From a virus (taxonomy: Duplodnaviria > Caudoviricetes), in the IMG/VR virus record IMGVR_UViG_3300031951_000200, positions 1-55,233 of that record: a stretch of DNA of 55,233 bases. One strand, given 5' to 3'. Within the stretch, counting starts at the first letter, position 1. Every line of letters begins with the position of its first letter. Shown here piece after piece: positions 17,299 through 55,233 of the stretch. The notes under the pieces are model-generated. The model was not told the origin of the DNA. It did no database searches and saw nothing but the letters and a program-made list of their open reading frames with translations. A program made the translations under genes and the position numbers.

Positions 17299-17355
17299 GT
17301 CATTTTCGCACACCTTGGAATGAGCCGCAACCCATCATTTCATGTCGCAAAACAC

Positions 17356-17384: not shown

Positions 17385-17389
17385 TACTC

Positions 17390-18743: not shown

Positions 18744-18968
18744 ATGACCGACCTCGAATCCCTCCTCATTCCCTTCTTTGCGGGTGCCACATTCATTCTG
18801 GCCTTCGTCGTCCCAGCCTTCATCGGCTTCAACCGCAACTGGAATGTGCGCCTGCTCAACGAGAAAGCGCAGGAGTTTGATCGCGGGTATGAGATGGGCC
18901 GGAAGTTGAACAATTTCATGCACGACATCAAAAAGCCAAACTGGACACTTGATAACATGCCAGAATAA
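18744..18968 (+). CDS. Small membrane protein
   Basis: LLIPFFAGATFILAFVVPAFIGF transmembrane segment. Confidence 0.55.
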   Translation: MTDLESLLIPFFAGATFILAFVVPAFIGFNRNWNVRLLNEKAQEFDRGYEMGRKLNNFMHDIKKPNWTLDNMPE

Positions 18969-18977
18969 ACGTAAGGT
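18949..18977 (+). promoter_or_regulatory. Promoter, CGTAAGGT class, driving the ncRNA cluster
   Basis: TTGATA-N17-TAAGGT. Confidence 0.7.
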
Positions 18978-19061
18978 TACTCCGTGACCGACACACACCG
19001 AGGTATTAGCGTTACCTAGTGAAGGCTGGCCCTCCAGTCTGGAATGTCGGAGAGGGCACCT

Positions 19062-19074
19062 TGATCTTTGACAA
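19062..19074 (+). promoter_or_regulatory. boxA-like antitermination site preceded by a hairpin
   Basis: TGATCTTTGACA, 10/12 match to the E. coli rrn boxA TGCTCTTTAACA; GCCCTC/GAGGGC hairpin at ~19029-19057. Confidence 0.55.
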
Positions 19075-19080
19075 CTGAAA

Positions 19081-19240
19081 GCAGAATCCAGCGGTAGCTA
19101 AATCTGGTGTAAGCCCTTCCGAGCTTAGCGGCTCAATGGAAGATGGTGTAAAGTAGCTCTGAGTAACGTTCCAGAGTGGAATACAACATAAGCCCCGCAG
19201 GGGTGATGCAGGGTTCAAATCCTTGCCCGCTGGATTCTGT
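19081..19240 (+). ncRNA. tRNA-like RNA with expanded anticodon and variable arms
   Basis: Acceptor CCAGCGG/CCGCTGG, T8A9, D-arm GCT...TGG...AGC, T-arm GCAGGG-TTCAAAT-CCTTGC; no canonical 7-nt anticodon loop; no CCA. Confidence 0.7.
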
Positions 19241-19250
19241 TTTCCTAAAT

Positions 19251-19371
19251 GACTCGGCGCAAAGGTCCGCAAGACCAAACCGCGACACTAAAATCAGGAA
19301 GTAACTAGTTCTTGCCTGTTCAATGAGTGTAGGGAGCCTTTCCGGTGAAAGCCGAATGAGAGGCCCGAGTC
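19251..19371 (+). ncRNA. Multibranch structured RNA
   Basis: GACTCGG/CCGAGTC closing stem; GGTC-CGCAA-GACC, ACACT/AGTGT and CGGT-GAAA-GCCG hairpins. Confidence 0.55.
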
Positions 19372-19380
19372 GCCTATTTG

Positions 19381-19416
19381 CAACCCGTCTGTTCACTCAG
19401 GCGGGTTGTTCTTTTC
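19381..19416 (+). terminator. Intrinsic terminator ending the ncRNA cluster
   Basis: CAACCCGTCTG-TTCACT-CAGGCGGGTTG followed by TTCTTTT. Confidence 0.8.
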
Positions 19417-19472
19417 CGTAAGGTTGAGGTTGTAAATCACGCAGCCGCATGTTAATGTTGAAATCTACTCTT

Positions 19473-40479: not shown

Positions 40480-40481
40480 AA

Positions 40482-41006
40482 TTAGCGGTTCTGGTTGGAA
40501 TTGTTGAATAATCCTCCAAGGACTCGAAATGGAGCCTTAGCCATTCCGAAGAAACCTGAGAGGGCTGGATTTTTGTTGCCCATAAACGAGTTCGTGACCG
40601 CGTTCGTTCCTGCACTTGAGGTATTACCGAGGTATCCACCCTGCGGAGGCGTTCCTGCTTCTTTGGACTGAGTGGAGAGAGTGTCTAGCTCATCCTCCTG
40701 TGGCCCCATGAGGTTGCTGCGAATCATCCCAAGTTGGAGGCGCTGCATCGGGTCGCGAGTGCGGCGGAAAGCCTGTTCAGCGAGTCGAGTAGGGTCCATT
40801 GAGGAGCGCCCCACCTTTGTAGCCGGACGCTGGGAAATAGCCAAAGAACCGGGGTCTGCGATTTGACGGGTTTTGAATGCCGCGCTGCCCGGACCTTGAT
40901 CGCGATCTTTATTCAGCATGTCTAGCTGCGATGGACGAGAAGCACCAGCCTGCGCCCTCTGGAGGCTGCTGCCGCTAAAACTGTTCATGGGAGACGGTGT
41001 AGCCAT
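40482..41006 (-). CDS. Putative internal virion protein
   Basis: Low-complexity S/G/Q-rich; operon position. Confidence 0.55.
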   Translation of the reverse strand: MATPSPMNSFSGSSLQRAQAGASRPSQLDMLNKDRDQGPGSAAFKTRQIADPGSLAISQRPATKVGRSSMDPTRLAEQAFRRTRDPMQRLQLGMIRSNLMGPQEDELDTLSTQSKEAGTPPQGGYLGNTSSAGTNAVTNSFMGNKNPALSGFFGMAKAPFRVLGGLFNNSNQNR

Positions 41007-41009
41007 AGA

Positions 41010-41969
41010 TCAATGGGTCTGGAGAGTTGAGCCTGCGGATTGAGGGAAATGAAAGGGCATCGTCGGGCGAATTGCTCCCCGATTTTGTTTTAGCCCTTGG
41101 TTGAGGATTTCGTAGCACTTGGCCCAGCGTTGGTCGGCCTGAGCCTCCTCGTAAGCTCCTTGGTCCTCTAGGCGAACGGCAATCAGGGCGTGCTTTAGAG
41201 CGCCGATGTTGTCAGGCCAGATGAGGTCAGTTTCAGCTACGGCTGGCACAAAACGACGCTTACAGATGCAGCGCAGCCACGGCTTGCCGTCCTCGCGGGC
41301 AACCATCGTTCCGGTCTTGTAGCGGCGGTAGATTGGATTCGTCTCGCTAGGCTCGTAAACCGAAAGGACAGTCGGAGTGCCACTTGTCACCGAGGAAATG
41401 GTTACAGTGCCCTTGGTGCGAGGCTTGACGATCTGCGTGATGAAGATTTCGTCCGTTCCGGTGACGGTCGGATTAGCCAGAGTCAGGTTCTTTCCAGCCA
41501 GTCCATCGCTGTCAAAAAGCTCGTCTCCGCCTGCGTCATAGCCGTAAATGCGGCAAATCAGGCCAGCATCGTCTGGATTCGAGATGGTCAGACGGATAAG
41601 TCCAGCTTCCTCTTGGACCTCCTGAGTGCATACGTCCGATTGGTCGATGATGGTCTTGAGGTCGATGTCAGTATCATCAAAATACCCCGGCCCCGAGGTC
41701 ATGAACTCGATCATCCGGGGATAAACGCCAGTCGGGTAATTGACTCGGGTGACGCCGATAATGGACTCCCAACGGCGAGGAAGGGTAATGTAGCCGGTAG
41801 GGGCTTGAAAATCGACCCTTCCGTAAGAGTTCTTCCAATTCCCTGAGTTGATAATGCGCTCACACGCTTGGTTCAAATACGGCAAAAACTGCCCCGTCGT
41901 AGGGTCGGACGGGTCAACTTGCGCATAAAGTGCGGCTCTCGCGTCCGCTACGGTGAGTCCAGTGCTCAT
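41010..41969 (-). CDS. Putative head-tail adaptor / tail tubular protein
   Basis: LTVADAR...YLNQACERI...G.ITLP, typical of the adaptor/tubular A N-terminus. Confidence 0.6.
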   Translation of the reverse strand: MSTGLTVADARAALYAQVDPSDPTTGQFLPYLNQACERIINSGNWKNSYGRVDFQAPTGYITLPRRWESIIGVTRVNYPTGVYPRMIEFMTSGPGYFDDTDIDLKTIIDQSDVCTQEVQEEAGLIRLTISNPDDAGLICRIYGYDAGGDELFDSDGLAGKNLTLANPTVTGTDEIFITQIVKPRTKGTVTISSVTSGTPTVLSVYEPSETNPIYRRYKTGTMVAREDGKPWLRCICKRRFVPAVAETDLIWPDNIGALKHALIAVRLEDQGAYEEAQADQRWAKCYEILNQGLKQNRGAIRPTMPFHFPQSAGSTLQTH

Positions 41970-41994
41970 TTGGACTCGATTCTAATGCCTAGAA

Positions 41995-42792
41995 TCAGGC
42001 TGGCAAGAACGATTTAAACCGAATAGAACAGGCAAATGGAACCATTTCCATGCAGCAGAACACGTCTTCGTATTCGCCATCCTCTGCTGGGTGCCAGAGG
42101 CCATCAATCAGGTTGAATTTGGGCGTCTGGAGGAACTTCGTTACGTATGGGAAATGAACTTCTTCTGGAAGCACTTCTTTTTGTATTGTTCCGATCTGCG
42201 CCCCCTCTTTACGCCTCCAAAAGCCACGAAAATCCCCCCGTTTTCTATCTTCAATATAATCAGATATTGCACTGTTCGTGTCTTTTAGGCTTGAAAAGAT
42301 TGTCATCTGAAAAAACTTTTCGTTCAGCCCGCGTCCCGCCAAGCTCATTGATTGAAAGATGAAATCTAATATCTCTGGATTTAGGGCGCGTCCCATATCC
42401 ATAACTGGAGTGAGCGTTTTTGAGCCTTCTTGTATAATCTGAAGCGATGGGTTGGCCACATACTGTCTCAATAAATAATACTCAAGGCCATTGATGGTGA
42501 CTAGCGGCGGCTTAACATCCCAATTCAAGCGTGGATCATTAATGCTGATTCGCTCAACCCAGTTTGGTCCCATGCTGACGCTTTCAGGGTTTGGTCTAGT
42601 TCGACGAATCTTTTGGAGAGCCTTATCTAAAGAGCAGATAGCGTCTGCCATACTGTCCCTAAGCTCTGGAAAGTAAGGCCACGGATTCCATGTATGCTCA
42701 CCATCCGTTAGGGAGTGATACTTGTCCAAGTCGTCGGAGGCGCTTTGAATTACCTCCATGAGTTTTTGGGCCTGATTTTCTTGTTTATCCAT
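41995..42792 (-). CDS. Hypothetical protein (AT-richer insertion)
   Basis: 265-aa ORF. Confidence 0.6.
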   Translation of the reverse strand: MDKQENQAQKLMEVIQSASDDLDKYHSLTDGEHTWNPWPYFPELRDSMADAICSLDKALQKIRRTRPNPESVSMGPNWVERISINDPRLNWDVKPPLVTINGLEYYLLRQYVANPSLQIIQEGSKTLTPVMDMGRALNPEILDFIFQSMSLAGRGLNEKFFQMTIFSSLKDTNSAISDYIEDRKRGDFRGFWRRKEGAQIGTIQKEVLPEEVHFPYVTKFLQTPKFNLIDGLWHPAEDGEYEDVFCCMEMVPFACSIRFKSFLPA

Positions 42793-42831
42793 AGAAATGA
42801 GAGGGCAATCGGGAATTTTAGGGTTTGTCCA

Positions 42832-43617
42832 CTACTGAATAACTGGAAATTGTTCAGCAGCATCGCCTTTTTCGCGCCATCGGACAAACTTGGCCTTACC
42901 TCCGCGCCTAGCGATGTTCCAAGCCTTGATGCAAAGTGCCATCATATACGGCTTAGTCAGCTTTGCTTTTGACAGCGAGTTAGCAACAAGCCTTTCTCGC
43001 AATACATACCAAGGACTTTCCTCTTCCAGACCGGTTCCGTTCAAAACTTTTTCCACAAACTCCTCTGCGAGGGCTGGGTCTTTGCGACTGAATAGATAGT
43101 GGCAGGCATCTAACACGGATGGAAGTATCAAGCCCTTGGTTTTAAACGATGTTTGCACTGAATTTCGCGCCTCTGAATACTTCTCCAAAAGCTCCTCGAC
43201 CTCCGTGTTTGAATAAGCGATGGACAGGTCAGACCTTCCCGTAAAGTATTTGTCGATCTGAACTAGAGCCGCCGCAAGTCGGTGAGAATTTTGCTCGCCA
43301 CGGACACTCAAGGTATCGCCTGCTCCACGGCGTTTGCCCACATCTTTTGTGTCAAAGACATCCGAAGACAATCCATCAATCACGAATGATTGAATGGTCA
43401 CGCCGGAAAGAACCACAGCAGCTAGACGATGCTGGCCGTCAATAAGTCTGCTTTCATTCAAACAGATGGTGTCACCGTTGACCTTCCATTTGCCGCGCTT
43501 CATCTCTTTTGCCAAAACGGCTACGTGATGCTTGTTCATCGCGCGGTTGCCCACGTTTTTCTCGTCGAGAATCTTCTGCGCCCATTCAGGCGTAATTGTC
43601 ATTATGGTTGCTTTCAT
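42832..43617 (-). CDS. ParB/DGQHR-like domain protein
   Basis: ITPEWA..IL...NR...MKRGKW...LIDGQHRLAAV. Confidence 0.75.
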   Translation of the reverse strand: MKATIMTITPEWAQKILDEKNVGNRAMNKHHVAVLAKEMKRGKWKVNGDTICLNESRLIDGQHRLAAVVLSGVTIQSFVIDGLSSDVFDTKDVGKRRGAGDTLSVRGEQNSHRLAAALVQIDKYFTGRSDLSIAYSNTEVEELLEKYSEARNSVQTSFKTKGLILPSVLDACHYLFSRKDPALAEEFVEKVLNGTGLEEESPWYVLRERLVANSLSKAKLTKPYMMALCIKAWNIARRGGKAKFVRWREKGDAAEQFPVIQ

Positions 43618-43655
43618 AGTGTATTAAATGGCCGTGTTGACAGCCTCATATCTCA

Positions 43656-43684
43656 ACCTTACGCCAATCCCACCTCAAGATCAA
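43656..43684 (-). promoter_or_regulatory. Promoter, CGTAAGGT class
   Basis: TTGATC-N17-TAAGGT on the minus strand. Confidence 0.7.
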
Positions 43685-43721
43685 GTCTTGCCTTACGTTA
43701 ATTCGCACATACGATGCCTGA

Positions 43722-45530
43722 ATGACCAAAGCGCCTCCAAAATCCAACGTTGTCCAGTTCTCCAAAGGGCCGCTGAACGTATGGGGCTTTCGAGAAAATC
43801 TAGGAGCTAAAAACCAGCTCCAAGTCGAGCTTTTGCTGATGCAGCTTCGGTTTGGTTCTCAGCGCCACCGAGACGGTTCAAAGAACGAGAAAGGACTACC
43901 CGCATGGCGGCACTTCATGAACGCCGTGGAGTTGATCTGGAACTACAAGGATTCGCCTACGCCGTTCATCTGGCATCCGTGGGCCATTCAATACGCTAAG
44001 GACGCTTTCAAGCACAAACGCTACGCCGTCACGTCTGGCGGCTCTGGCGGCAAGACCGAGTTCTTCGCGGTCTATGCCCTCGTCTGGTGGCTGGCTAATC
44101 CGTTTGCGAACGTGATTCTGGTGAACACCACGACCATCAAGGACGCGGACGGGCGCATTTGGGGGAGTATCACGAAGTTCTTCTCAGGGATGATAGCGCC
44201 ACCTCCCGGCAAGCTGATTTCATCCGGCCACTGCATCAAGTCGGTGGACACGAAAACGGGCCAGACTCTCGACAAGTTCGGCATTCGCCTGTTCGCCTGC
44301 GAGAAGTCCAAGGAGGCAGAGTCTAGCCGCGCCATTCGAGGTCAGAAGCACGGCCCCGGTGGTAAGATCATCGTGATTATGGATGAGGCTGCGGAGCTTG
44401 GTGTCGCCATCCGCAATGCCTTCGAGGAAAACTTGACGCAGAACCCGAACTATCAGCTCATCGCCTTGGCAAACGCCAATACGCCGTTCGACAACTTTGG
44501 GGAAATCTGCAAGCCGAAGGACGGAGGCTGGGAGAAATACGACCCGGCATGGGATTCGTGGGAAGGTGAGGGCGCGTTCGTTCGCCGTGTGAACATCGAA
44601 ACTTCACCGAACATCATTTACGGTCGGACGATCTACTCGTTCCTGATGACGAGGGAGGCGCTTAAAGACAAACGAGAGCGTCTAGGCATGAACTCCCGCG
44701 CATACTGGCGAGGCGTGCTAGGAGCCTTCCTTCTGGATGGCGATGACGAAACGATCTACTCGCCCGGTGAACTCCTTCGCGTGCCTGCCGATTGCGTCTG
44801 GCAAGGCGTGCCTACAAAGGTAGCTGGCTTTGACATCTCGCACACGACGGGCGGGGATAAGTCTGTGCTCACCATCGGGTCTATTGGCCTGTGCGTTGAC
44901 GGCAAGAAGCGCCTACGTTTTGAGAAGCACATCGAGCTAGATGAGGACGTGACGCGCAAGGACGTGGACCGCACGACGCAGATGGTAGAGAAGCTGAAAG
45001 AGATTTGTCAGCGGGAGGGAATTGCTATAAGTAATCTCGGAGTTGATAGCAGTGCGGGTGGTGGCAAGACTTTCTCCGATGCCATTTGGTCGAAGTGGTC
45101 GAATGGGTTCCTTCGCGTGGACTTTGGGGGTAAGGCTTCCGATAGGCCAGTGTCCGCTGCTGACCGCGAGAAATCCAGCGTTCGATTCGCGTCAAAAGTT
45201 AGCGAAATTTGGAGCGTGGGCAAAGAACTCATTCGCTGCGATCAACTGCGCAACATCACGAAGGAAATGGCGGAGGATTTAGTCTCTCGCAAATACAAGG
45301 ATACCAAGGCGCAGGATGGTGGATCACGCATCAGGGTTGAGTCCAAGGTGGATATGAAGAAGCGCATTGGACGCTCGCCTGACGTTGGAGACTCGGCATT
45401 TATCCTCGTTGACCTTTGCCGCGAACGGCACGGCCTAAGCAGCATCGACAAGCCGGGGAACTACGGCAGCAAGCAGACGAATCCGCTAAAGAAACGGTTC
45501 ATGGGGCTGGCGGAGTTGTTTGCGGCTTAA
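43722..45530 (+). CDS. terL: Terminase large subunit
   Basis: Walker A SGGSGGKT, Walker B IVIMDEAAE, ALAN coupling motif, RNase H FDIS..GGD...SPDVGDS. Confidence 0.9.
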   Translation: MTKAPPKSNVVQFSKGPLNVWGFRENLGAKNQLQVELLLMQLRFGSQRHRDGSKNEKGLPAWRHFMNAVELIWNYKDSPTPFIWHPWAIQYAKDAFKHKRYAVTSGGSGGKTEFFAVYALVWWLANPFANVILVNTTTIKDADGRIWGSITKFFSGMIAPPPGKLISSGHCIKSVDTKTGQTLDKFGIRLFACEKSKEAESSRAIRGQKHGPGGKIIVIMDEAAELGVAIRNAFEENLTQNPNYQLIALANANTPFDNFGEICKPKDGGWEKYDPAWDSWEGEGAFVRRVNIETSPNIIYGRTIYSFLMTREALKDKRERLGMNSRAYWRGVLGAFLLDGDDETIYSPGELLRVPADCVWQGVPTKVAGFDISHTTGGDKSVLTIGSIGLCVDGKKRLRFEKHIELDEDVTRKDVDRTTQMVEKLKEICQREGIAISNLGVDSSAGGGKTFSDAIWSKWSNGFLRVDFGGKASDRPVSAADREKSSVRFASKVSEIWSVGKELIRCDQLRNITKEMAEDLVSRKYKDTKAQDGGSRIRVESKVDMKKRIGRSPDVGDSAFILVDLCRERHGLSSIDKPGNYGSKQTNPLKKRFMGLAELFAA

Positions 45531-45637
45531 TTCAAGGAACGAAAGGAATCCCCATACGGCGGAGGGCTTCTTCGAGGCTGGCTTGAAGGTCTTCACAAAG
45601 TCATTGACTGAAGAAAGTAGTTGTTGTAACAACAATC

Positions 45638-46147
45638 ATGTCCCTACAAATCACACACGAAGCTATCAGGTTCTTTTGGAGTAAAAATAATGTTGGCCCG
45701 TTGCCCGATCAAAAGAATGTTCACTACCAAGGTTTAGATAAATGCTGGCTATGGAGCGGCAGCTTGGCTCCTGACGGATATGGCAAAGTGAAAATCAAAG
45801 ATAAACACACAAGTGCCCATAGGTTATCGTGGGTGATTCATAATGGAGAAATTCCCAGCGGAATGCAGGTTTTGCATAAATGCGACAATCGCTCATGCGT
45901 AAATCCGAATCATTTGGTTCTTGGAACAAATGCCGAGAATACCGCTGATAGGGTAAGAAAAGGAAGATCAAATCCAGCTAAAGGAAATCAACTGCCACAA
46001 TCGAAGCTGGATGAGTGTAAGGTTAGGCAAATTCGAGAGATGAGCCGGGTTGGGATGCCGCAATCCAAAATCGCCGCTTATTTTGACATGTGCCAGCAAG
46101 CAATTGCTAATGTGGTTTCGAGAAAAGCGTGGGCGCATATTAAGTAG
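45638..46147 (+). CDS. HNH endonuclease (HNH_3-type) with C-terminal HTH
   Basis: CWLWSG...GYG...AHRLSW...VLHKCDNRSCVNPNHL..GT..EN. Confidence 0.9.
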   Translation: MSLQITHEAIRFFWSKNNVGPLPDQKNVHYQGLDKCWLWSGSLAPDGYGKVKIKDKHTSAHRLSWVIHNGEIPSGMQVLHKCDNRSCVNPNHLVLGTNAENTADRVRKGRSNPAKGNQLPQSKLDECKVRQIREMSRVGMPQSKIAAYFDMCQQAIANVVSRKAWAHIK

Positions 46148-46149
46148 CC

Positions 46150-46758
46150 TTACAGCAACTCTACCAAGACCTGCTTGTGAAGCACGTCTCTTCCAACGAC
46201 CCGATATTGGCAGTCGGTCTTTTCTAACCATTCAGAGAATGCCCCGAACTCATGATCCTCAAATCCTGAGTAATTGTAGAACTCATCGAACAGAAGCATT
46301 GGTTTTTTCTCGATGATCTTGTCCGAGAGAAGGCTAAGGACCGTTCTTGTTGAACTGCCCAAGTCACAATCAATGTGGACCCCTCTGAGCGCATCCAGCG
46401 ATGCGTCACCAATAAAGGTGGGCAGAGTGTCATCAAAAAGGCCGATGTGAAGCTCAACATTTGGATGAAACTTGATCTTTTTGTGATTGCACTTAAAGCG
46501 GCCCTTTTCGACCCTACCCCAGTTCTCAGGTAGGCCGTTAAAAGAGTCGAATCCGTGAAACTTGGTTCTTGGGCGCATTGCCGCCATGCAATTTATTGAC
46601 CTTCCGGTAGCTACGCCAAACTCCAAGCAAACGTCGAGTGGCTTGATATAGGAAAGGTATGCGTGCCAAAGCTCTTGCTTTGAGTGGCATTGAAGCTCGC
46701 AGTTCATGACTCTATTCAAGAGTTCATGCCGTATGGTCAAAATGTTTTTTGGCTGCAT
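46150..46758 (-). CDS. TylF/MycF-like O-methyltransferase
   Basis: LEFGVATGRS, GFDSF.GLP, GLFDDTLP, HIDCDL, FDE; start may be 46707. Confidence 0.85.
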   Translation of the reverse strand: MQPKNILTIRHELLNRVMNCELQCHSKQELWHAYLSYIKPLDVCLEFGVATGRSINCMAAMRPRTKFHGFDSFNGLPENWGRVEKGRFKCNHKKIKFHPNVELHIGLFDDTLPTFIGDASLDALRGVHIDCDLGSSTRTVLSLLSDKIIEKKPMLLFDEFYNYSGFEDHEFGAFSEWLEKTDCQYRVVGRDVLHKQVLVELL

Positions 46759-47731
46759 GGTAAGTGTTGATTAGTTTCTCTGCTGCTCCGCCCCATTGAG
46801 ATTGTCTTGATAGCCACCAGTTTATCCACTTTGATCTAGCCCTCTTATCAACAACCGGCTTAACAAGCGGTGAATGCCATTCGACAGGCTCTTGGAAAAC
46901 ATTAAGAGCGTTGAACCAAGACTGCCCAGTGGCTATTACGGGGCGTCCAGTTAGAACCATTAGATGAGAAACTGACGAGCAAATAATGACGTGATACTGA
47001 CACCCAGCCAGCATATTCCAGTTGGCATTTTTGTCATAGAACGCCCTCTCATTACTTCCAGATACCTTTGGTTTATCGCACACCAACTGAATACCCGGAT
47101 CAACGTGCGGAATGGTCTGTTTGTAGATTTCGGAATGATTGACGATTCCCATCTTGACCACTGGCTCAAGTCCAATCTGCCTGATTTTCGCGCAAACCAA
47201 ATTCAGCCATTCATGCTGCTGCATGACACCAAGCTCGGGCCTGAGCAATTTGGTGTTCCACTGCATCCATACGCCAACCTTGCCAAAGTATCTTGATCCA
47301 TCAGCCGTGGCTATTTTTTCCAAACAATGTGATCTGAATTGGCGAATGTATTTGGGTGCCTTTAGCCAGTCCACTTTGTCTGGAAGACTGGCCCACTCAT
47401 CGTGAATACCAGAAGACAAGTCTGTCCTGCGATAAAAGTCAAACATGCAGGTCTTGTAGTGATCCAAGTATCCAAAATCAGTGCTTAGAACTGGGATTCC
47501 AGCCTGAATTGCCAGCTTAATCCAAGGCAAGCTACCGTCTGCAAACAGCCTCCCGTGTTCATTCCTGTGAATCAGGGCGGAATACCCATCGGTTATAGCC
47601 CTATGAACTACGCCGTCTTTGTTTTCATCGCTCCATAAATCTACCTGCAATCCAGATGATGAACACGAATCCATCACCATCTTGATTTTAGAGGCGTAGT
47701 TCTCTTTTGAATTTACGAACAAGAACTTCAT
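46724..47731 (-). CDS. Capsule-biosynthesis-like (KpsS/KpsC-like) GT-B glycosyltransferase
   Basis: VIICSSVSHLMVLTGRPVIATGQSWF resembles the KpsS-type T.NSTVG..A...GKPV..G motif. Confidence 0.55.
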   Translation of the reverse strand: MKFLFVNSKENYASKIKMVMDSCSSSGLQVDLWSDENKDGVVHRAITDGYSALIHRNEHGRLFADGSLPWIKLAIQAGIPVLSTDFGYLDHYKTCMFDFYRRTDLSSGIHDEWASLPDKVDWLKAPKYIRQFRSHCLEKIATADGSRYFGKVGVWMQWNTKLLRPELGVMQQHEWLNLVCAKIRQIGLEPVVKMGIVNHSEIYKQTIPHVDPGIQLVCDKPKVSGSNERAFYDKNANWNMLAGCQYHVIICSSVSHLMVLTGRPVIATGQSWFNALNVFQEPVEWHSPLVKPVVDKRARSKWINWWLSRQSQWGGAAEKLINTYHAAKKHFDHTA

Positions 47732-47732
47732 A

Positions 47733-48296
47733 TCAAGGCCCCGGAGACGGGCTTGGTGATGCGCTGGCCGATGGGCTTGCTGACATACTTGGAGATATGG
47801 ACGGAGACACACTCATCGACAACGATGGGCTAATAGAGGCCGAAGAACTTGCAGATGATGAAATGGAAGCGGTCGGAGAAATGCTCGGAGAGATAGACGC
47901 TGAGGTTGATGCTGAGATCGAAACCGATGTAGAGATTGAAACAGATGGCGATGCTGATGTGGATGGAGATGTTGAAGCCGATGTGGATGGAGATGCCGAC
48001 GTAGAAGGAGGGGCTACCGGATTCGTCTCACTCACATTGCTAACCTGCGCCGTATAACTAGCCCCTCCAAACGAGAAGGTCATGTAGGTGCCAGCTCGAA
48101 TCGGCACCACCTGCAACGAAGGCGTCGCATCAAACGAGTTATCAATCCTCACCACCGGCCTAGCCTGCTGTCGAATAGTAACTTGGTCAGACCCACGCTG
48201 GCGGTTCGCAATCAAGCCTCCGACTCCGTATTCCTTGGGAGCGGACTGATACGGGCTGGCATCGGGGCCATACGTGCCGTTTGCGGTCGTAATCAT
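47733..48296 (-). CDS. Virion/tail protein with a ~75-aa Ser-rich repeat tail
   Basis: C-terminal SASPSTSASTSPSTSASPSVSISTSVSISAS...SPSPSPGP; ATGA overlap at 48296. Confidence 0.7.
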   Translation of the reverse strand: MITTANGTYGPDASPYQSAPKEYGVGGLIANRQRGSDQVTIRQQARPVVRIDNSFDATPSLQVVPIRAGTYMTFSFGGASYTAQVSNVSETNPVAPPSTSASPSTSASTSPSTSASPSVSISTSVSISASTSASISPSISPTASISSSASSSASISPSLSMSVSPSISPSMSASPSASASPSPSPGP

Positions 48297-49129
48297 TGGA
48301 TCGTCTCTTCGGGCTGCGGAGGCGGGAAGATTTCTACCTGCTCGCGTAGCCACATGCCGTTCACATACTGCTGCGTGTCGCGGAGGATGAAGCTCTCCCA
48401 GTCGATGAAATTGGTGGCCGGAATGATCGTCTTGTTTGGGTTGCGCCCCGGAGGAGGGTTTTGAACGCCCACTCCAACGATGATTTCCGCTGTGTATTGC
48501 TGCTCGGGAAAGACAACGGTGGGATGCAGGCAGCGAACAAAGTCCATGGAAACGCCGATGTAGGAGCCATTCACATCCGTAGGCACCGGCTGCTCATGCG
48601 TCAGGTCAGCTTCGCTCCACGGCGTCGGAGAAAGGAACTGTCGGACGATGATCGTCGAGTTGTAGTTGACCTCTGGAATGAACTTGTAGCGCGGCAGAAT
48701 GCGCGGCGTGGTGACGATGGATGCGCCGTTATTGATAGCCAGCGGGAAGGCATTCGTCTCGATGGCGTAGAGGTCGAGTAGAACCGCAGGCCAAGTGTAG
48801 TTCTGCGTGTCCGGGAAAACCTTGAAGGGCTTGTTCTTGGTGCCTAGACCATCCTTGGAGTTCTCGGTCTTTGATTTGCCGAACAGGAAGGAGATGGAGC
48901 CAGCGCCACCTTTGGAGCACGAAACATAGATGTAATCGCCCCATTTCTCATTGGCGCGCTCGCCGTTGACCGCCCAAAGGAACTCCTTGTAGCGAGTCAC
49001 CCCGGCCTGCAAAATGGGCTTCTCGGGCGACAGGAACAGCTCAGGGTTGATCTTTTGGTCAGGCACCGACACCGAGAACATGAACTCGTTCGGGTCTGGC
49101 GTCGGAAGTAGCTGGAAATTCGAGGCCAT
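48293..49129 (-). CDS. Putative tail/structural protein
   Basis: Beta-rich; coupled to neighbours. Confidence 0.55.
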   Translation of the reverse strand: MASNFQLLPTPDPNEFMFSVSVPDQKINPELFLSPEKPILQAGVTRYKEFLWAVNGERANEKWGDYIYVSCSKGGAGSISFLFGKSKTENSKDGLGTKNKPFKVFPDTQNYTWPAVLLDLYAIETNAFPLAINNGASIVTTPRILPRYKFIPEVNYNSTIIVRQFLSPTPWSEADLTHEQPVPTDVNGSYIGVSMDFVRCLHPTVVFPEQQYTAEIIVGVGVQNPPPGRNPNKTIIPATNFIDWESFILRDTQQYVNGMWLREQVEIFPPPQPEETIQ

Positions 49130-49824
49130 TAGACGGTGTTCGGGGGATACGGAGCAATCACATCGCCAGTCTGCCATTCAGCGGCCAGAGAGGCAGGGGT
49201 GCCATTCTCAATAGTGAAAATCCAGTGCGTGCGAGCGAGGAAGGTCTGCCGGAGGGGCTGATGGTTGATTTCGTCGGAGACTGAGGCTCGGAGGTCGGTG
49301 GCGGTAGGCTGCGCAGTAGTGGCAACAGCCCCGATTTGACCCGTTCCGAATGCCCCCGGAATAACAGCCACATCAGCCGTAAACGTCGAATTTGTGGAGT
49401 AAGTCACCCCGGCGCTGACGTGATCGGCGTAGAACGTGCCTCCGTTGGTGAAAATATCTCGAAACTCGCTCGACCACACTCGGATTTCGTCCCGTTGGAT
49501 GATCGCGTAGCCAGCGGTGATGCCTGTACCAAGGTCAATCGCAGCTCCCCCAAGGGTTTCGGCCAGCTTGCAGGTAGCGCCGGAACTGTCTCGGGCGAAA
49601 TAGACCCGGTTCGTAGTGAGGTTAGAGCCTCCTGAAAGCTGCGTAAAGGTGATTTGCAGGCCGTCTGACAGCGTGGCACCGGCAAAGGTGACTACATCCG
49701 TGGAATTATCGCCCGTGACGCCAGCGTAGGCTGTGGTTGATCCGGTAAGGGACACCGCCGAAACGTTGTCGTATTTGAAGAATCTGCCGTTCTTTCGGCA
49801 AAGGAAAATCGTGTCGCTGGCCAT
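49129..49824 (-). CDS. Putative tail fibre/decoration protein
   Basis: T/G/A-rich beta domain (TFAGATLSDGLQITF...LTTNRVYF...KLAETLGGAAID). Confidence 0.6.
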   Translation of the reverse strand: MASDTIFLCRKNGRFFKYDNVSAVSLTGSTTAYAGVTGDNSTDVVTFAGATLSDGLQITFTQLSGGSNLTTNRVYFARDSSGATCKLAETLGGAAIDLGTGITAGYAIIQRDEIRVWSSEFRDIFTNGGTFYADHVSAGVTYSTNSTFTADVAVIPGAFGTGQIGAVATTAQPTATDLRASVSDEINHQPLRQTFLARTHWIFTIENGTPASLAAEWQTGDVIAPYPPNTV

Positions 49825-49842
49825 AATTTCGGAGAATATCAC

Positions 49843-49871
49843 TTGCGCGGGTGAGGGCAAGTTGTTAATGT
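49843..49871 (+). promoter_or_regulatory. Promoter for the large structured RNA locus
   Basis: TTGCGC-N17-TAATGT with extended TG; same TGTTAATGT as the promoter at ~19430-19458. Confidence 0.6.
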
Positions 49872-49877
49872 CGCCCT

Positions 49878-50590
49878 ATTCCCAAATAGGTTTGCTCGTG
49901 CAAGGAGCGATCCGCCCACAGCAAACCGCTCTGAGGCCGACTTCTTGCACAAGTCGGCCTCTTTGTGTTGGCGGAACAACCTCCCGCGACATAGGTATCG
50001 GTAGCGTCCCTGAGCGGGCAACGTGGAGCCGGTAGAGGTAGAGAGCAGAGTTCAGCGGATAACACCAACGTATATCGCGTGTCGCGTCTAGCTGCCTAGC
50101 AGAAGCATAGCTGCCGTCTAAGGTGTCCCAAGAATCCGCGTAATGGCGAAAACCGGGTGCGACGGATAGACAAAAGCAGGGAGTAGCGACCCCCGCCCGC
50201 TGAACTCTGCTCTCCGAAGGTTGAATTGAGCGCACGCTTGTAGAGCAAGTCGCAAGACGGGTGATGCCTCAAAGCGGGATTCCCGAAAGGGTTTCACAAG
50301 AGTCCGGTTACGTTCCCGTTCGTATGGAATACCGGAGTGTGCTCAATTCAGCCTTCAAACAACGGTGTCGCCCTGAAATGCAAGTTAAGGCGGCGTAAAA
50401 ACGATGGTTCGGGTTAATGCCCCGAGGAGAAACCGTTAGGGCAACAGTCTGTATATGCTCATCAACCGTGGACTGCCCTAGTGTGAGAAATCATGTGTTA
50501 CGGAAACCTCATTGGCTCCTTATACTGATGCTTAATCACACAGGTCTTTCGGCAATAGCCGGGAGAAACTGTGCCCGTTTTCCTTTTCCA
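49878..50590 (+). ncRNA. Large multi-domain structured RNA region
   Basis: 18-bp perfect stem 50041-50058/50197-50214; 20-bp stem 50216-50235/50337-50356 with two G-U pairs on +; GCAA/GAAA tetraloops; no credible ORF. Confidence 0.7.
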
Positions 50591-50609
50591 CCATACCTGA
50601 TAGTCACTT

Positions 50610-51338
50610 ATGCAAAGCAGCCCAACATCCTACGGCCAAAGTCTCTGCCGTCGCTACATTCTAGCCCTCACACCGTCTCGGTTTTACGAGAATCATAGAC
50701 CTAGTTGGCTATTTGGGATGGAGCTAGATTTCTTCTTTCCAGACCACAACATCGCCATTGAGTTTAATGGCGACCAGCACTACTTTTCAACTGGCCTATC
50801 GGAATCGCCCAGTGCTCAAATAAGGCGTGACGTGAGAAAGAAAATGCTTTGCAGAGAGAGGGGCATTAAGGTCTTTGTGTTCAAAGCTATTGATTTGGTG
50901 ATGTGCAGGTTTCGCATGAAACTGAAGAAAACACTCCCGTTCTACGCAAAGACAAAAGTTTCCGATCTCGATGCGGAGGCCAAGCGATACAGGAAGCTCT
51001 TGAGGGAGAAATTCCACAGTCCAACCGCCCACCGTGGAAAAGGGAAGGCCAGACAAAAGACCGTGGCTAAACTGTTTGAGGCTCACCCTCCCTCGTTTGA
51101 GGGCAGGTGGAATGCGGACAAGTTTTACTTTAAGTGGAATGAGTGGTGTAAGGACCAACCCAAATGCCTCGAAACTGTTCAATCCTTCAAGGAAGCGTTT
51201 CCAAACAATCTTCGCAAAAGGCAAATTAGAGAGTTGGATAGAATCTCAATGAAGTGGGAGACTAAAACCGAATCCCCAAGAAACAATGGCGCAAGCCCTG
51301 CATCCCGTGTGACTGCCCTTGACTCGCCCTCCGAATAA
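50610..51338 (+). CDS. Vsr/DUF559-like (PD-(D/E)xK-related) endonuclease with basic C-terminal region
   Basis: RPSWL.GMELDFFFPDHNIAIEFNGDQHY...RD..K...C...GI. Confidence 0.75.
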   Translation: MQSSPTSYGQSLCRRYILALTPSRFYENHRPSWLFGMELDFFFPDHNIAIEFNGDQHYFSTGLSESPSAQIRRDVRKKMLCRERGIKVFVFKAIDLVMCRFRMKLKKTLPFYAKTKVSDLDAEAKRYRKLLREKFHSPTAHRGKGKARQKTVAKLFEAHPPSFEGRWNADKFYFKWNEWCKDQPKCLETVQSFKEAFPNNLRKRQIRELDRISMKWETKTESPRNNGASPASRVTALDSPSE

Positions 51339-51347
51339 GCGTAAGGT
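51319..51347 (+). promoter_or_regulatory. Promoter, CGTAAGGT class (leaderless)
   Basis: TTGACT-N17-TAAGGT-N7-ATG. Confidence 0.8.
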
Positions 51348-51354
51348 TGGAGAT

Positions 51355-51561
51355 ATGAAACCCGAACCCCAATGGCACGACTTCCCGTTCAAAAGCGGCC
51401 TGTATGCGCTGCGTTGTGGAGAATATGTGGCTATCGCCCACATTTACGGTGAGGGGTCGGTTTGGTATTACCGAAATGAAGGATATAGTTACGCATACCC
51501 ATTTGCTCCAGAGCTGTTCAACGGAGAGTGCTACGGGCCTATTGAGCTTCCAAAGATGTGA
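51355..51561 (+). CDS. Hypothetical protein
   Basis: Start MKPEPQW directly after the promoter. Confidence 0.6.
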   Translation: MKPEPQWHDFPFKSGLYALRCGEYVAIAHIYGEGSVWYYRNEGYSYAYPFAPELFNGECYGPIELPKM

Positions 51562-51767
51562 ATGCCTGTCACTCCTGCATCCACCTAGGCCTCATTAAAG
51601 GCCGCGCCGGAGTCTGCAAGGGACACATCTGCATGGCTCCAATCACATCCGACCCTCCAAAAGACGGAGAGACGCGGGCCAAGCATCCATTCGTCTATCT
51701 CACGGAGGTTGATAGCCTCTGCGAGATGTGGACGCCGCATAAGGTGGTTGACGGAGAAGATAAATAA
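51558..51767 (+). CDS. Small Cys-rich protein
   Basis: CHSC...C...C...C. Confidence 0.55.
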   Translation: MNACHSCIHLGLIKGRAGVCKGHICMAPITSDPPKDGETRAKHPFVYLTEVDSLCEMWTPHKVVDGEDK

Positions 51768-51776
51768 ACGTAAGGT
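51748..51776 (+). promoter_or_regulatory. Promoter, CGTAAGGT class (leaderless)
   Basis: TTGACG-N17-TAAGGT-N7-ATG. Confidence 0.8.
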
Positions 51777-51783
51777 TAAGTAT

Positions 51784-52119
51784 ATGACACCCGACCAAAC
51801 CCTCACAAAACTCCTCGACCTCTGCGCCAAACATGGCTACGACGCTGTGGCTATTGGGATGAAGCATGAGGTGGTTCCTCAAAGTGTGAGATTTGTGTTT
51901 GGACCCCAAGGTAGCATCTTCGCCAATCCAAAGGGCAGAAAAAGGTGCAACATTGATGGATGGCCCGCTATTTGGTCTATCGTTGAGCAAGTTGGCCTCG
52001 AAAGTGGCTGCGGAAACTTTCATCAACACCAAATCCACAACGCACCCTTCCTCCATCCTCAAGTCTGGCAACTTAAAAAGGGCAAGTGGGCGAAGATTGC
52101 GGAGGAGGTGGCGTCATGA
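51784..52119 (+). CDS. Hypothetical protein
   Basis: Start MTPDQT. Confidence 0.6.
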   Translation: MTPDQTLTKLLDLCAKHGYDAVAIGMKHEVVPQSVRFVFGPQGSIFANPKGRKRCNIDGWPAIWSIVEQVGLESGCGNFHQHQIHNAPFLHPQVWQLKKGKWAKIAEEVAS

Positions 52120-53002
52120 AAATAGCAATGGCATCCGTATCACTTTCAAAGAGGGATGGGTATAACCTGCTCACATCACACTCCCTTCATTATTGCCAAG
52201 ACGTAAACGAGGACGAGATGCGAGGAATAGCCATCAAGTCCTCGATGGAGAATAAGCCCGGATTTTCCGTGGACTCGGTTTTGGTGAAGGTGATAGAAAT
52301 ACCTGAGAGCAATGCCTGACCTCTGCCCCACCTGCCACGCTGCCGGACGTTCCTTGTGGAACAATTCTTGCCTATGCACGGGTGACGCCATGCAGCCAAC
52401 GGCATTCCATAAGTGGTCGGCAAAGAACCGCATTCCTCACAACATCCAGCAGCCTAAAATCGAACTGCCGAAAGTGGTTGTCAAAAAGCCGAAGCTAGTG
52501 TTTGGTCAGGCTATACCGAAGATATGACCTACGAAGAAGAACCCATTGAGGACGCCCTAGTAACCCTCTGCGAAACCGTGTTTGACCCGGATCGCGCAGC
52601 GCCGTTAATCCGCAAGAACATCGCCAATCGCATTGCCTGCGAATACACCGTGAAGTTCTACGGCACGGAGGCTGGAATCATCATGGAAACGAATCTAGTA
52701 ACCAAGGCAGAGCCTAAGAGGCTTGGAAAGAAGGTGGTGGTATGAGTGAAACGCAAGTTTTATCGAATGTCCTTGGCGGCGCTCAGGCGGCTGATTTAAC
52801 CGCAATGAAGACCGCATCTATTATGAGCCGTCAAGGATATAAAATCACGGGCTTTGTGGTGTGTCACCCTGAAACGCATGAGCGGTGTATCGTGGAAATG
52901 TCCGCGTGCCGTTGGCTGACCAACGAAGAGATGTGGTGGCTCATGCACGTCAGCAAGTCACCTCTTAACCCTACCTCATCTCCTCCACCCACCGAACCAT
53001 AA
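52116..53002 (+). CDS. Run of four small overlapping hypothetical genes (52116-52319, 52312-52527, 52524-52745, 52742-53002)
   Basis: Mostly ATGA-type overlaps. Confidence 0.55.
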
Positions 53003-53158
53003 TCGGCGTGATCGTGGCATTATCGCCATCGTGCATGGAGCAGCCTTTACCGCACTCAATAAACCAAGTGCCGTCGTAGCCAATCTTGGGCCGCTCCTTG
53101 TGCTGTCGGCAGGGTGGGGCGGTCTGATTAAAGTCCAGCATTAGGCGCTCGATTTGGG

Positions 53159-53740
53159 TCATGCTTTGATTTCGGCTGGAAATCCGCACGCCACACGAAG
53201 CTGTCCCATTGGAAATGCGGGTCCGGGGTCGCTCTTGCGTAAAGGTGCAATATCATCGTGACCAATCACATCGTCGAGATTGTAGCGTTCAACGAGCGCC
53301 TTGGCCAGTTCCGTGCAAGCCTTCACCTGCGCCTCGGGATATGCTTCCCATTCCGTAATAGGACCGCCGTTCTTGTGGCGAGCTTTCACCAGCGGCAGTT
53401 TAGTCCACCTAGAAGCCAGTTTGGCGTCGTCGCCAGCGTTGGCTAGTTCAATGCCAATCGAGCACGAATTGAGGCCGTCAAAACCCTTCCATTTCGATTT
53501 GCCAGCATGTCCGCAGACTACGTTAAAGGGACGACACTGGATGATTGAGCCGTCGCGGTCGATAACGATGTGGGCAGAAGCCCCTTTGGCCGCTGGCGTC
53601 TTCCAGAAATTGACGGAGGATTGAGCAGAGGCACCGCTTGTGAAATGGATCACAAGGAAGCGCCGAACAGGCATCGGCGATCCTCCCGCAATTCGGTCAC
53701 GCTTCACGCCTTCAAGCCAGTGGTCTTTGGTGATGTTCAT
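53159..53740 (-). CDS. Endolysin, N-acetylmuramoyl-L-alanine amidase (Amidase_2)
   Basis: LVIHFT, ASAHIVIDRDG, GHAG, NSCSIGIEL, IGHDDI...KSDPGP. Confidence 0.92.
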   Translation of the reverse strand: MNITKDHWLEGVKRDRIAGGSPMPVRRFLVIHFTSGASAQSSVNFWKTPAAKGASAHIVIDRDGSIIQCRPFNVVCGHAGKSKWKGFDGLNSCSIGIELANAGDDAKLASRWTKLPLVKARHKNGGPITEWEAYPEAQVKACTELAKALVERYNLDDVIGHDDIAPLRKSDPGPAFPMGQLRVACGFPAEIKA

Positions 53741-53838
53741 AAATTCGGATTCTTGATGATAATCAAACCCCAAATCGTCAGCGCGACCGCCGTAAACAGC
53801 AGGCCAGCGATAACGGATGGTGTAAATTCGACGATCAT
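53737..53838 (-). CDS. 33-aa single-TM peptide (holin/lysis accessory candidate)
   Basis: MIVEFTPSVIAGLLFTAVALTIWGLIIIKNPNL; overlaps both neighbours. Confidence 0.6.
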   Translation of the reverse strand: MIVEFTPSVIAGLLFTAVALTIWGLIIIKNPNL

Positions 53839-54095
53839 TACGGCTCAACGTCCTCCTCAATCATTCGAGTGTTGTGCTTGTAAAGAAATGCGGCCATGTC
53901 GGTGCTGAGTTTGTCCACTACTTCCTCGGGCAACGCCCATTCCCATTCGTGGAGAAATTCATGAATTAAAATGCGGAGATGAGGCTTGCCGCGAAGCCGG
54001 TCGTCTATTTCAATCCTTCCATTACCGTGCGCAAGCCCGAGAGCGCGATGTCTCCCGAGCTTGCGACGTAGAACGGTTATGGAGCTTGATTTCAC
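53838..54095 (-). CDS. Small zincin-like (HExxH) protein
   Basis: LGLA...IEID..L......LIHEFLH.......EE. Confidence 0.7.
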   Translation of the reverse strand: MKSSSITVLRRKLGRHRALGLAHGNGRIEIDDRLRGKPHLRILIHEFLHEWEWALPEEVVDKLSTDMAAFLYKHNTRMIEEDVEP

Positions 54096-54493
54096 TTTTT
54101 GCGTAGCTGGGCAACCATTGAGGCATTTGCCCCGTTGATGCGATGAGCGATGTAGCTGTTGCTTTTGCCCTTGTGGCGTTCAATAGCCGCCAAGATGCGT
54201 TCTTCTAGGGACTTTGGCTGCCCCTTTGTGGAGACGCCTTCCTTGGCAGGAGAAATACCATCGTCTGTCTTTTGTCGATAGCATCGAACGCGAATGGTCA
54301 TGCGGCGTTTCATGTCCCAAACTGGAAACTCCTGAGTCTCGAAAGCTCCCGATGCCAGACCGCCTTTGAGCAGGTCGTGAACCCGCTCTGGAGAGCATTG
54401 AAGCTCGGCTGCGATCTTGTCTTTGGTGTCCCAACCTGCCGGGATGCTGAACTTCTGGACGTTGATTTTATCGACTGCTTTTTGCCAATTCAT
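54092..54493 (-). CDS. Hypothetical protein with HTH-like segments
   Basis: IPAGWDT..IAAEL..S...V. Confidence 0.6.
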   Translation of the reverse strand: MNWQKAVDKINVQKFSIPAGWDTKDKIAAELQCSPERVHDLLKGGLASGAFETQEFPVWDMKRRMTIRVRCYRQKTDDGISPAKEGVSTKGQPKSLEERILAAIERHKGKSNSYIAHRINGANASMVAQLRKK

Positions 54494-54532
54494 AGTGTGT
54501 TTTGCGTGGTTTATTGTCTGTTTTTGCGTGGC

Positions 54533-55233
54533 TTATCCAACAAAGATCGGGAAGGTGACGGTCCTTCCGTAGCGTTTGTCGAAAATGAATCCCGTTTGGG
54601 AAGGTGGTTCGTATGGTGCTTTAATGACAACGGAGTAGGCGTTGTATCCAATCAAACTCCCGTTGCAAATCCACTTCGGGTTCTGCTGACTCTGGTGCCA
54701 GTGACCAAAGATGTCGAGGTCTGCCGGGACACCCTTGTTCCAAGACGCAATAGCTTTCTCAACTGGGATGGTCAAACCACCAATGCCGCCTTGATACTGC
54801 AATCCGTCGCCGTGATGAATGCGCAGGGTCTTGCCATAGAGGTCGAGAAGAAGGTGGTAGCCATCGGAAACGTGCCATTCGGCCTTGCTGCCCATGTGCT
54901 TCGCCATCGTCTTATACAGCATCCACTCGTAGGAATTGGCTGCACCTGTGGCATGTCGTGGTTTGCGAGTGTTGCGACCATGATTTCCATAGACACAGGG
55001 AATTACTATTTCCCCAAAGTGCTTCGACAAAAGCTCAACACCGCTGGCAATTTGATCTTGAAGCCACAGAACCGTTTGCGTAGGCGATAGAGCATTGTTC
55101 TCCATCAGTTCCTCATGGATGTAGCCCGTCATCAAATCGCCCCCTAAAACAAGCACAAGGCGGTCAATTTTGGCTCCGTGACGCTGAATCTGAGCCATGC
55201 GAACAATGGACTGCCAGAAACGGTTGATGCGCT
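54533..55233 (-). CDS. Calcineurin-like metallophosphoesterase (5'-truncated)
   Basis: GGDL, GNHGR, HHGD, GHWH, NGSL; frame open to the window end. Confidence 0.85.
   Translation of the reverse strand, partial: RINRFWQSIVRMAQIQRHGAKIDRLVLVLGGDLMTGYIHEELMENNALSPTQTVLWLQDQIASGVELLSKHFGEIVIPCVYGNHGRNTRKPRHATGAANSYEWMLYKTMAKHMGSKAEWHVSDGYHLLLDLYGKTLRIHHGDGLQYQGGIGGLTIPVEKAIASWNKGVPADLDIFGHWHQSQQNPKWICNGSLIGYNAYSVVIKAPYEPPSQTGFIFDKRYGRTVTFPIFVG

Follow-up and report, generated by a model that had tools for sequence, protein, structure and literature searches.

The 55,233-bp IMG/VR virus record analysed here (the window, by which we mean this whole stretch of DNA; estimated completeness 88%) carries at 49995-50590 a tract that an original prediction had taken for one ornate, large RNA of ~600 nt or, as a second option, for several RNAs in a polycistronic array that cleavage at the stems would set free. 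A - strand gene (ATG at 49824) lies on the upstream side of the tract, and an open reading frame (ORF) on the + strand, encoding a homing-endonuclease-like protein, follows it. Our analysis favours the second option, and the observation behind the prediction is partly confirmed. Two abutting modules, S1 and S2 (domains 1 and 2 of the prediction), make up the folded portion of the tract, each closed by a long stem, hereafter the clamp, and a third module of the same family, S0, is located 31 kb away (Table 1). While we place high confidence in the structural identification of these modules, we have low confidence in the chain of functions that we propose for them below; overall, we consider it reasonably probable that the tract represents two stem-clamped, tRNA-derived modules acting through such a chain, and not one RNA.

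Table 1. Features of the window, with their supporting evidence and folding energy. R1, covariance model of the clamp; last column, number of dinucleotide shuffles as stable as the native segment.
Feature	Position	Strand	Evidence and remarks	Fold z-score	Shuffles as stable
Module S1 (domain 1), whole	50041..50214	+	138-nt body; 18-bp stem, arms 50041-50058/50197-50214, 100% complementary; R1 69.4 bits, E 1e-18	-5.0	0/200
S1 interior	50059-50196	+		+0.50	131/200
Module S2 (domain 2), whole	50216..50356	+	101-nt body; 20-bp stem, arms 50216-50235/50337-50356; R1 51.7 bits, E 2e-13	-7.35	0/200
S2 interior	50236-50336	+		-1.21	21/200
3' part of the tract	50357-50590	+		-1.15	26/200
Stretch before S1	49970-50040	+		+0.63	147/200
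Spacer / 5' region of the endonuclease gene	50357..50609	+	specific to the window's phage lineage; structured RNA unsupported	-1.15 (50357-50590)	
Module S0	19077..19244	+	18-bp stem with one G-U, arms 19077-19094/19227-19244; R1 71 bits, E 3.5e-19		
Structured non-coding stretch after S0	19245..19417	+	ends in an intrinsic terminator, stem 19380-19409	-3.38 on +, -0.10 on - (19245-19448)	
Possible sigma-70-type promoter	49843..49871	+	TTGCGC-17 nt-TAATGT, read from the sequence; consensus scan made no call; overlaps the start region of the - strand gene		
Leader hairpin and intrinsic terminator	49880..49969	+	terminator scan; stem 49933-49961, then a T-run	-5.1	
Free-standing homing-endonuclease-like gene, 242 aa	50610..51338	+	PHROG: phrog_559 (1.5e-11); phrog_3339 and phrog_9084, 'homing endonuclease'; phrog_7140, 'intron encoded nuclease'		

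Compared with dinucleotide shuffles, the whole tract is more stable on either strand (z -5.99 on the +, -4.13 on the - strand). A segment-by-segment split (n=200 shuffles per segment) traces this energy signal to the two closing stems alone, because both interiors and the 3' part fold no better than shuffles; the stems themselves are far beyond chance. Their description in the original prediction was accurate: the S1 stem is perfect, with 18 of 18 positions paired, and that of S2 consists of 20 pairs, among them a U-G at position 6 and a G-U at position 17 (an inverted-repeat scan gave the S2 arm pair as 27 nt with 81% complementarity). The inner arms and GNRA loops that had been read inside the domains are present in the sequence, but are not beyond chance by energy. 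Likewise, the helices AACGGT/ACCGTT, AGGGCA/TGCCCT, GTGTGA/TCACAC and CGGC-AATA-GCCG can be found, but they belong to a segment that is no more stable than its shuffles and is devoid of homologues in 52 fetched loci. The interiors of S1 and S2 also lack a homologue among these 52 loci, so that neither they nor the 3' part have comparative support. A single, diverged metagenome contig covers 50441-50588, and a scan with the R1 covariance model (filters off) detected neither a match nor a further clamp in 50357-50590; these bases are an unremarkable spacer ahead of the endonuclease gene.

The clamps, on the other hand, recur in other phages. S0 came to light in a seeded stem search, and the three stems of the window represent paralogous classes (S0, GAAARCAGAATCCAGCGG; S1, GAGAGYAGAGTTCAGCGG; S2, GAAGGTTGAATTGAGCG) with a common frame, GA-----GA-T--AGCGG. 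Exact-pattern scans of IMG/VR recovered 9 stretches with the S1 arm, 14 with the S0 arm, 24 with the S2 arm and 8 with the S1/S2 junction; five more stretches with the junction were recovered from metagenomes. R1 models the 17-pair clamp and was derived from an alignment of 31 distinct units that includes those of the window, whose R1 scores are therefore partly given by construction, and the independent support for the family comes from the stem-pattern scans that recovered other phages. An unfiltered R1 scan of the window yields the three units and no others (71, 69.4 and 51.7 bits); the match ranking fourth has an E-value of 0.11. At E<=0.001, it matches 32 of the 63 fetched sources, with no match in the 11 loci L003-L013 and none in 11 single-arm controls from bacterial and archaeal genomes. 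The search of the genome collection with the S1 arm had returned 11 stretches with one arm each, from unrelated taxa, which we judged to be chance matches and which pointed to no host or prophage.

Family units are 93-208 nt long, with bodies of 59-172 nt and clamp helices of 17-20 bp, and are arranged as S0 alone, S2 alone, S1-S2 or S0-S1-S2. A single base separates S1 from S2 in the window, and the same spacing is seen in 12/12 arrays (some of which were retrieved with a pattern demanding it); the S0-S1 gap in S0-S1-S2 arrays measures seven bases. Judged from ORFs read by eye, gene contexts vary: in L016/L018, for instance, the units are flanked by terminase and portal genes, and in L052 a polymerase-like gene follows. 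In L002, the domain-1 stem differs by two compensatory changes and encloses an interior that cannot be aligned to the window, and S1-class stems of other phages show compensatory changes as well. L048 and L058 retain just the outer 13-14 pairs of the S1 clamp, followed by a different inner helix. The constant part of the family is the outer clamp, not the tRNA part.

The pairing statistics show that the clamp helix is maintained by selection in + sense RNA. Across 31 distinct units with 17 pairs each (527 cells), 525 cells are paired. Changes on both sides occur in 8 of the 17 pairs and amount to 71 cells, as opposed to 25.9 +/- 4.0 in column shuffles (0/500 shuffles reach 71), and sliding the 3' partner by 1-3 columns leaves 30-47% of the cells paired. 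It is the nature of the imperfections that argues for RNA of this sense: 29 of the 31 non-Watson-Crick cells are G-U or U-G and would read as A-C mismatches on the opposite strand, and two are of another kind. What had been proposed for S2 from its two G-U pairs, namely that they fix the + strand, accordingly extends to the whole family. A single inherited U-G, at position 6 of S2, accounts for 17 of these 29 cells, and the remainder is spread over seven other pairs and several lineages. The sense of each unit was set from array order, synteny with the window or the T-arm.

As to the origin of the bodies, the Rfam tRNA model (RF00005; gathering score 29 bits) matches three of the 31 distinct units, two of them at or above the gathering score. 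These are the 93-nt S2 unit of L021 (34.1 bits; called tRNA-Met(CAT) by ARAGORN), the S1 unit of L018 (32.0 bits; its D-loop is enlarged by a 53-nt insertion) and the S2 unit of L045 (28.8 bits, just under the cut-off). In all three alignments, the acceptor stem coincides with the inner 7 pairs of the clamp. The outer 11-12 pairs form a leader/trailer extension in which the discriminator position is paired as well, and CCA is not encoded. Besides, the place of a tRNA T-arm, 5-7 nt ahead of the 3' arm, is occupied by a T-loop motif in 10 of the 31 units. In the window, the S0 body retains a D-arm-like hairpin and a T-arm hairpin, its T-loop GTTCAAATC lying 6 nt before the 3' arm, while the region that holds S0 (15800-19500) has no Rfam tRNA match at E<=10. 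ARAGORN made no tRNA call in the three units of the window. In other units, it made none in 14 loci and two in a further set of 26 loci, both beside and not within the units, and the call next to the L059 unit is without Rfam support. ARAGORN called no tmRNA in the window or in any of the 42 loci to which it was applied, and there is no tag reading frame. The family thus spans near-tRNAs, tRNA-like bodies with large inserts and bodies that are invisible to the models, such as those of S1 and S2 in the window. The modules are tRNA-derived, their larger bodies having grown or been replaced to a point where tRNA models miss them, and the stems are an extension of the acceptor helix, with complementary leader and trailer closing a variable body.

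Two tRNA calls outside the units deserve mention. In L040, ARAGORN places a tRNA-Ala (1872-1946, - strand) 20 nt upstream of an S0 unit, on the same sense strand, and at least one family unit therefore adjoins an ordinary tRNA call, although by ARAGORN only. The tRNA-Gln of 88 nt that the program called in the window at 15958-16045 (- strand) is doubtful, with no Rfam tRNA match at E<=10 and a z-score of -1.17.

Comparison of related genomes shows that bodies are exchanged at the inner edges of the clamp. Five loci (L037, L039, L041, L043 and L044) match the window at ~95% identity as far as 19096 and from 19226 onwards; between the S0 arms, they have an unrelated body of 62 nt as opposed to 129 nt in the window. 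Conversely, L034 and L042 have only 19055-19245 in common with the window, at 96%, and derive from otherwise unrelated phages. Their S0 units differ from that of the window at seven sites. Among these are a G-U to A-U change in the clamp, a replacement of C-G by U-A that preserves pairing in a hairpin of the body, two changes at unpaired positions and two in the T-stem. Bodies are thus swapped, and the helix sequences are conserved across unrelated phages. A gene for an HNH_3 homing endonuclease directly follows S0 in L037 (1775-2245), L043 and L044, and is absent from this position in the window.

Turnover is likewise evident at the S1-S2 locus. Among 11 related IMG/VR loci retrieved through the upstream protein, homology to the window ends at 49871 or 49969 and resumes at ~51270-51316, and in between each lineage has its own cassette of 1.1-1.7 kb, consisting of a non-coding stretch followed by a different ORF. 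Close relatives carry five different nuclease cassettes (window 49871-51316 versus L003-L012). By Pfam, the ORF of L005, whose cassette is common to L005 and L009, is MUG113/T5orf172 and that of L012 is DUF559; the L003 ORF and two L006 ORFs have no Pfam match. By eye, the ORF in the cassette of L003, L004 and L008 is HNH-like. Among the cassettes of the related loci, the two long-stem domains occur only in that of the window and also in L002, which ends at a contig edge. For the nuclease gene of the window, the matching PHROG families are annotated as HNH, homing or intron-encoded endonucleases; there was no Pfam, NCBIfam or PDB sequence match, and, judging from its motif, the protein may have a DUF559/Vsr-like core. 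Both module loci are hot spots of free-standing nuclease genes. The window genome as a whole is rich in such genes, two further HNH endonucleases being encoded at 45638-46147 (+) and 10868-11593 (-), with matches to HNH_3 (3.3e-17) and phrog_374 (4.3e-62).

Based on these features, we propose that the modules are transcribed within + strand non-coding units, of which the one containing S0 would end at the terminator at 19380-19409. The double-strand-specific RNase III of the host could then cut the modules from the precursor within the clamp, and trimming like that of tRNA precursors would follow. The uninterrupted duplexes of 18 and 20 pairs in S1 and S2 reach the roughly two turns of double-stranded RNA that characterize an RNase III substrate. 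The released bodies would be tRNA-like small RNAs, most plausibly serving as spare tRNAs or as mimics that blunt tRNA-targeting host defences. At the DNA level, the clamps might double as homology handles, with the neighbouring endonucleases stimulating recombination that swaps bodies between co-infecting phages.

Several observations weigh against this proposal. The S1 and S2 bodies of the window have no T-loop motif beside the 3' arm and no Rfam tRNA match at E<=10 (49800-50750), and, lacking also excess folding energy and homologues, they could be functionless. None of the RNA sequencing runs listed contains the stretch. Twenty DNA-type run entries, labelled freshwater or 'fungus metagenome', contain all or part of it, and runs X18-X20, labelled RNA-Seq, consist of contigs and are probably DNA. 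Together with X10, the latter cover conserved pieces only, i.e. the leader (49885-49966) and the S1/S2 junction, and are uninformative on expression, ends and strand. A strong + strand terminator (49933-49969) intervenes between the sole promoter-like site that we read and the S1-S2 modules, and neither an RNase III nor any other recognisable RNA-processing enzyme is encoded in the window. As far as the RNA sense is concerned, the orientation of a few units (e.g. L059) is based on weak cues, and the L045 group, a single S2 lineage, has C-A in place of the U-G at position 6, in an orientation that agrees with its T-arm, S1 remnant and leader. When protonated, C-A is isosteric with U-G. Finally, the stem sequences are conserved beyond the need of RNase III, which points to a sequence-specific reader or to constraints at the DNA level.

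Could the window units, then, be dead remains of tRNA genes without function, whose clamps persist because endonuclease-driven gene conversion copies them between phages? The state of the bodies, with neither tRNA score nor T-loop, excess stability or homologues, would fit such relics, and so would the terminator upstream of S1-S2, the lack of RNA evidence among the sequencing runs and the rapid turnover of the locus with its five nuclease cassettes. Relics should lose their pairing, yet nearly every cell of the clamp pairs (525/527), 8 of 17 pairs show compensation and deviations are G-U in 29 cases versus 2 others. Because this pattern needs selection on an RNA helix, we disfavour relics and regard them as unlikely; moreover, the arms are intact while the bodies differ, even between genomes that are ~95% identical. 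The conservation could alternatively reside in DNA, the arms being inverted repeats that act as homing-endonuclease or recombinase sites, or as ends resembling those of miniature inverted-repeat transposable elements, and the RNA fold a by-product. That arm sequences, beyond pairing alone, are conserved across unrelated phages speaks for this, as do the swapping of bodies at the arms, the movement of whole units between unrelated genomes and the endonuclease genes adjoining both loci; in addition, SegB recognises a tRNA T-arm motif in DNA (PMC2330249). A palindrome, however, gives no reason for G-T to prevail over A-C imperfections on one strand (29 versus 2 in the sense orientation), and in the small members the inner 7 bp of the clamp run into a tRNA cloverleaf. 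Neither did PHROG and Pfam searches of the window genes recognise a transposase or recombinase gene near the units, nor were there consistent target-site duplications at the unit ends when read by eye. We therefore find a DNA-level element quite unlikely.

A regulatory role in cis, with a structured 5' region of the nuclease mRNA limiting or timing its translation, is suggested by the position of the tract, which immediately precedes the nuclease ORF and has the same orientation; likewise, 220-500 non-coding nt precede the nuclease genes in other cassettes at the locus. Yet, the S1-S2 arrays of L014, L016/L018 and L021 are not followed by a recognised nuclease gene (ORFs by eye, with no family search), S0 of the window is followed by a terminator instead of a gene, and the part next to the ORF (50357-50590) has no excess structure, all of which renders a cis-acting leader highly improbable. 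We give still less credence, in fact hardly any, to one new large phage RNA of ~600 nt with a single global fold, as the original prediction had preferred. The stability of the whole tract, the absence of a protein-coding signal and the lack of a known family would all be compatible with it, but all of the energy signal lies in the two closing stems; other phages have the units apart or combined differently (and the window itself has the third one 31 kb away); and the 3' 234 nt show no excess structure, are not conserved with the modules and contain no R1 match or further clamp. An array of RNAs fits this anatomy much better than a single RNA, even though cleavage at the stems is something we infer.

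The database comparisons are in agreement with the original prediction in that it had recognised neither an intron core nor a GOLLD, ROOL or HEARO identity. The comparison with Rfam 15 (4227 families), which had been suggested there, left the whole window without a match at gathering score and 49800-50750 without one at E<=10; specifically, GOLLD, ROOL and HEARO had no match at gathering score in the window and nine related loci, nor at E<=10 in 49800-50750. The ORFs within the tract (119 aa on the -, 93 aa on the + strand) match no PHROG family. In a phage GenBank collection, there was no match to 49861-50609 (distant mode) or to 40000-55233 (near mode). We rejected a group I/II intron, given the lack of an Rfam match and of flanking exons, the flanks being a promoter region and the start of a divergent gene. 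A retron, a CRISPR-like array and an integron attC site were dropped as their defining partner genes or motifs are lacking. An invertible segment was dismissed, too, since an inversion of the body does not suit the L045 group, whose T-arm has the direction of the flanking S1 remnant and the leader.

Clamped modules derived from tRNAs have counterparts, each partial, among known systems. The flanks of rRNAs and the T7 intercistronic regions contain complementary sequences that form a long precursor duplex, the entry site of RNase III. The modules likewise have complementary sequences on either side of a body that would form a long duplex, but their stems are shorter (17-20 bp), perfectly paired and conserved in sequence between unrelated phages, and their cleavage is presumed. 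In tmRNA, a tRNA-like platform of acceptor and T-arm carries a large non-tRNA insert; here, in contrast, ARAGORN makes no tmRNA call, there is no tag reading frame, the acceptor end is buried in the clamp and CCA is not encoded. The stable RNAs C and D of T4 are small, of unknown role and encoded among tRNA genes. GOLLD, ROOL and HEARO resemble the modules in being non-coding, phage-associated and often near tRNA or nuclease genes, but differ in having a single large conserved fold where the modules are separable units of ~100-200 nt. By analogy, the closest match to their mode of action would be a phage tRNA cluster to which processing stems of the rRNA type have been added.

Such a cluster is that of T4/T6, where SegB is encoded among the tRNA genes, recognises a site with a T-stem-loop motif and causes the tRNA genes around it to be inherited (PMC2330249). 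A further study reports that genes for SegB homologues are found more often than expected at distances of up to 1 kb from tRNA genes, that amplified tRNA-Tyr defeats the Septu defence and that phage tRNA genes are anti-defence cargo spread and amplified by homing endonucleases (PMC13096335). The segB region and the loci described here have in common tandem tRNA-derived genes beside free-standing nuclease genes in a region exchanged between related phages. Unlike their T4/T6 counterparts, the modules are locked by an 11-13-bp leader/trailer extension of the acceptor with conserved sequence, most of their bodies are not recognisable as tRNAs, and the nucleases are HNH_3, MUG113/T5orf172, DUF559 and, in the window, an unassigned one. 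Y RNAs of the YrlA type are modular as well, with a long terminal stem and a tRNA-like domain, sometimes produced serially from one precursor and also phage-borne (PMC4201824). In YrlA, however, Rsr binds a stem made by the RNA ends, and a closed hairpin takes the place of the acceptor stem (PMC4201824), whereas the module ends extend the acceptor stem. A search for TROVE/Rsr (PF05731) gave no match in the 55-kb record (88% complete), and the Y-RNA families of Rfam had no match in the window at gathering score or in 49800-50750 at E<=10. With a different topology and no TROVE gene in the window, an identity as Y RNA was rejected. In the literature that we searched, tRNA-like units closed by conserved leader/trailer clamps are not described; this statement covers the available text of an IMG/VR catalogue of candidate structured RNAs, which reports tRNA-like candidates (PMC10690425), its supplementary tables lying outside the comparison.

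What emerges is a class of tRNA-derived phage genes that are wrapped in conserved stem clamps, with bodies diversified far past tRNA and traded as cassettes. If the clamps were indeed handles for both processing and recombination, phages would have a compact route to express and trade small RNAs, and this would explain why tRNA finders and Rfam miss these genes. A more far-reaching version, which we offer as speculation and deem unlikely, sees plug-and-play small-RNA cassettes of freshwater phages: the clamps would act as RNA excision signal and DNA recombination handles at once, endonucleases would drive the swapping of tRNA-derived decoy or spare payloads between unrelated phages, and the U-G of S2 (C-A in one lineage) might mark the site of a clamp-specific factor. 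Either way, there is a lesson for annotation, in that a patchwork of small units with long perfect stems may pass for one ornate RNA. The original prediction had overlooked that the modules descend from tRNAs, that their stem sequences are conserved throughout the family and that homing-endonuclease genes surround them.

Upstream of S1-S2, the leader (Table 1) is the most widely conserved piece of the region, with homologues in 13 of 52 loci, mostly upstream of module arrays. It could be a small RNA or an attenuator. GGAG..ATCC is found near the tip of its hairpin, and in X19 and X20 the leader is present in many different short contigs, at depths of 40-89 versus 2-9 for the neighbouring sequence. 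The promoter-like stretch at 49843-49871 is conserved in L005 and L009, and a stronger counterpart (TTGACG-17-ATTATC) precedes the same leader in L048 and L053. A further conserved, structured non-coding stretch of ~250 nt, starting with AAWTCGGCGCA, comes after the arrays in L014, L021, L048, L053 and L063. In L048, this stretch directly follows the leader, and S2 lies upstream of the promoter. The sequence after S0 in the window (19245-19417) starts similarly.

Elsewhere in the window, most large ORFs of the phage are without a PHROG match, and one ORF at 27185-38170 (-) extends over 3661 aa. At the downstream border of the nuclease cassette, the last ~65 nt of the nuclease ORF overlie, in another frame, what is left (the 3' portion) of an ORF whose intact form, of 78 aa, is found in L005 and L009. 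The adjoining block at 51319-51357 (TTGACT-17 nt-TAAGGT, then GGAG and an ATG at 51355) contains the stop codon of the nuclease ORF within its spacer. Conserved in 6/6 aligned relatives irrespective of the cassette, this block probably provides the small gene that comes next with its promoter and ribosome site.

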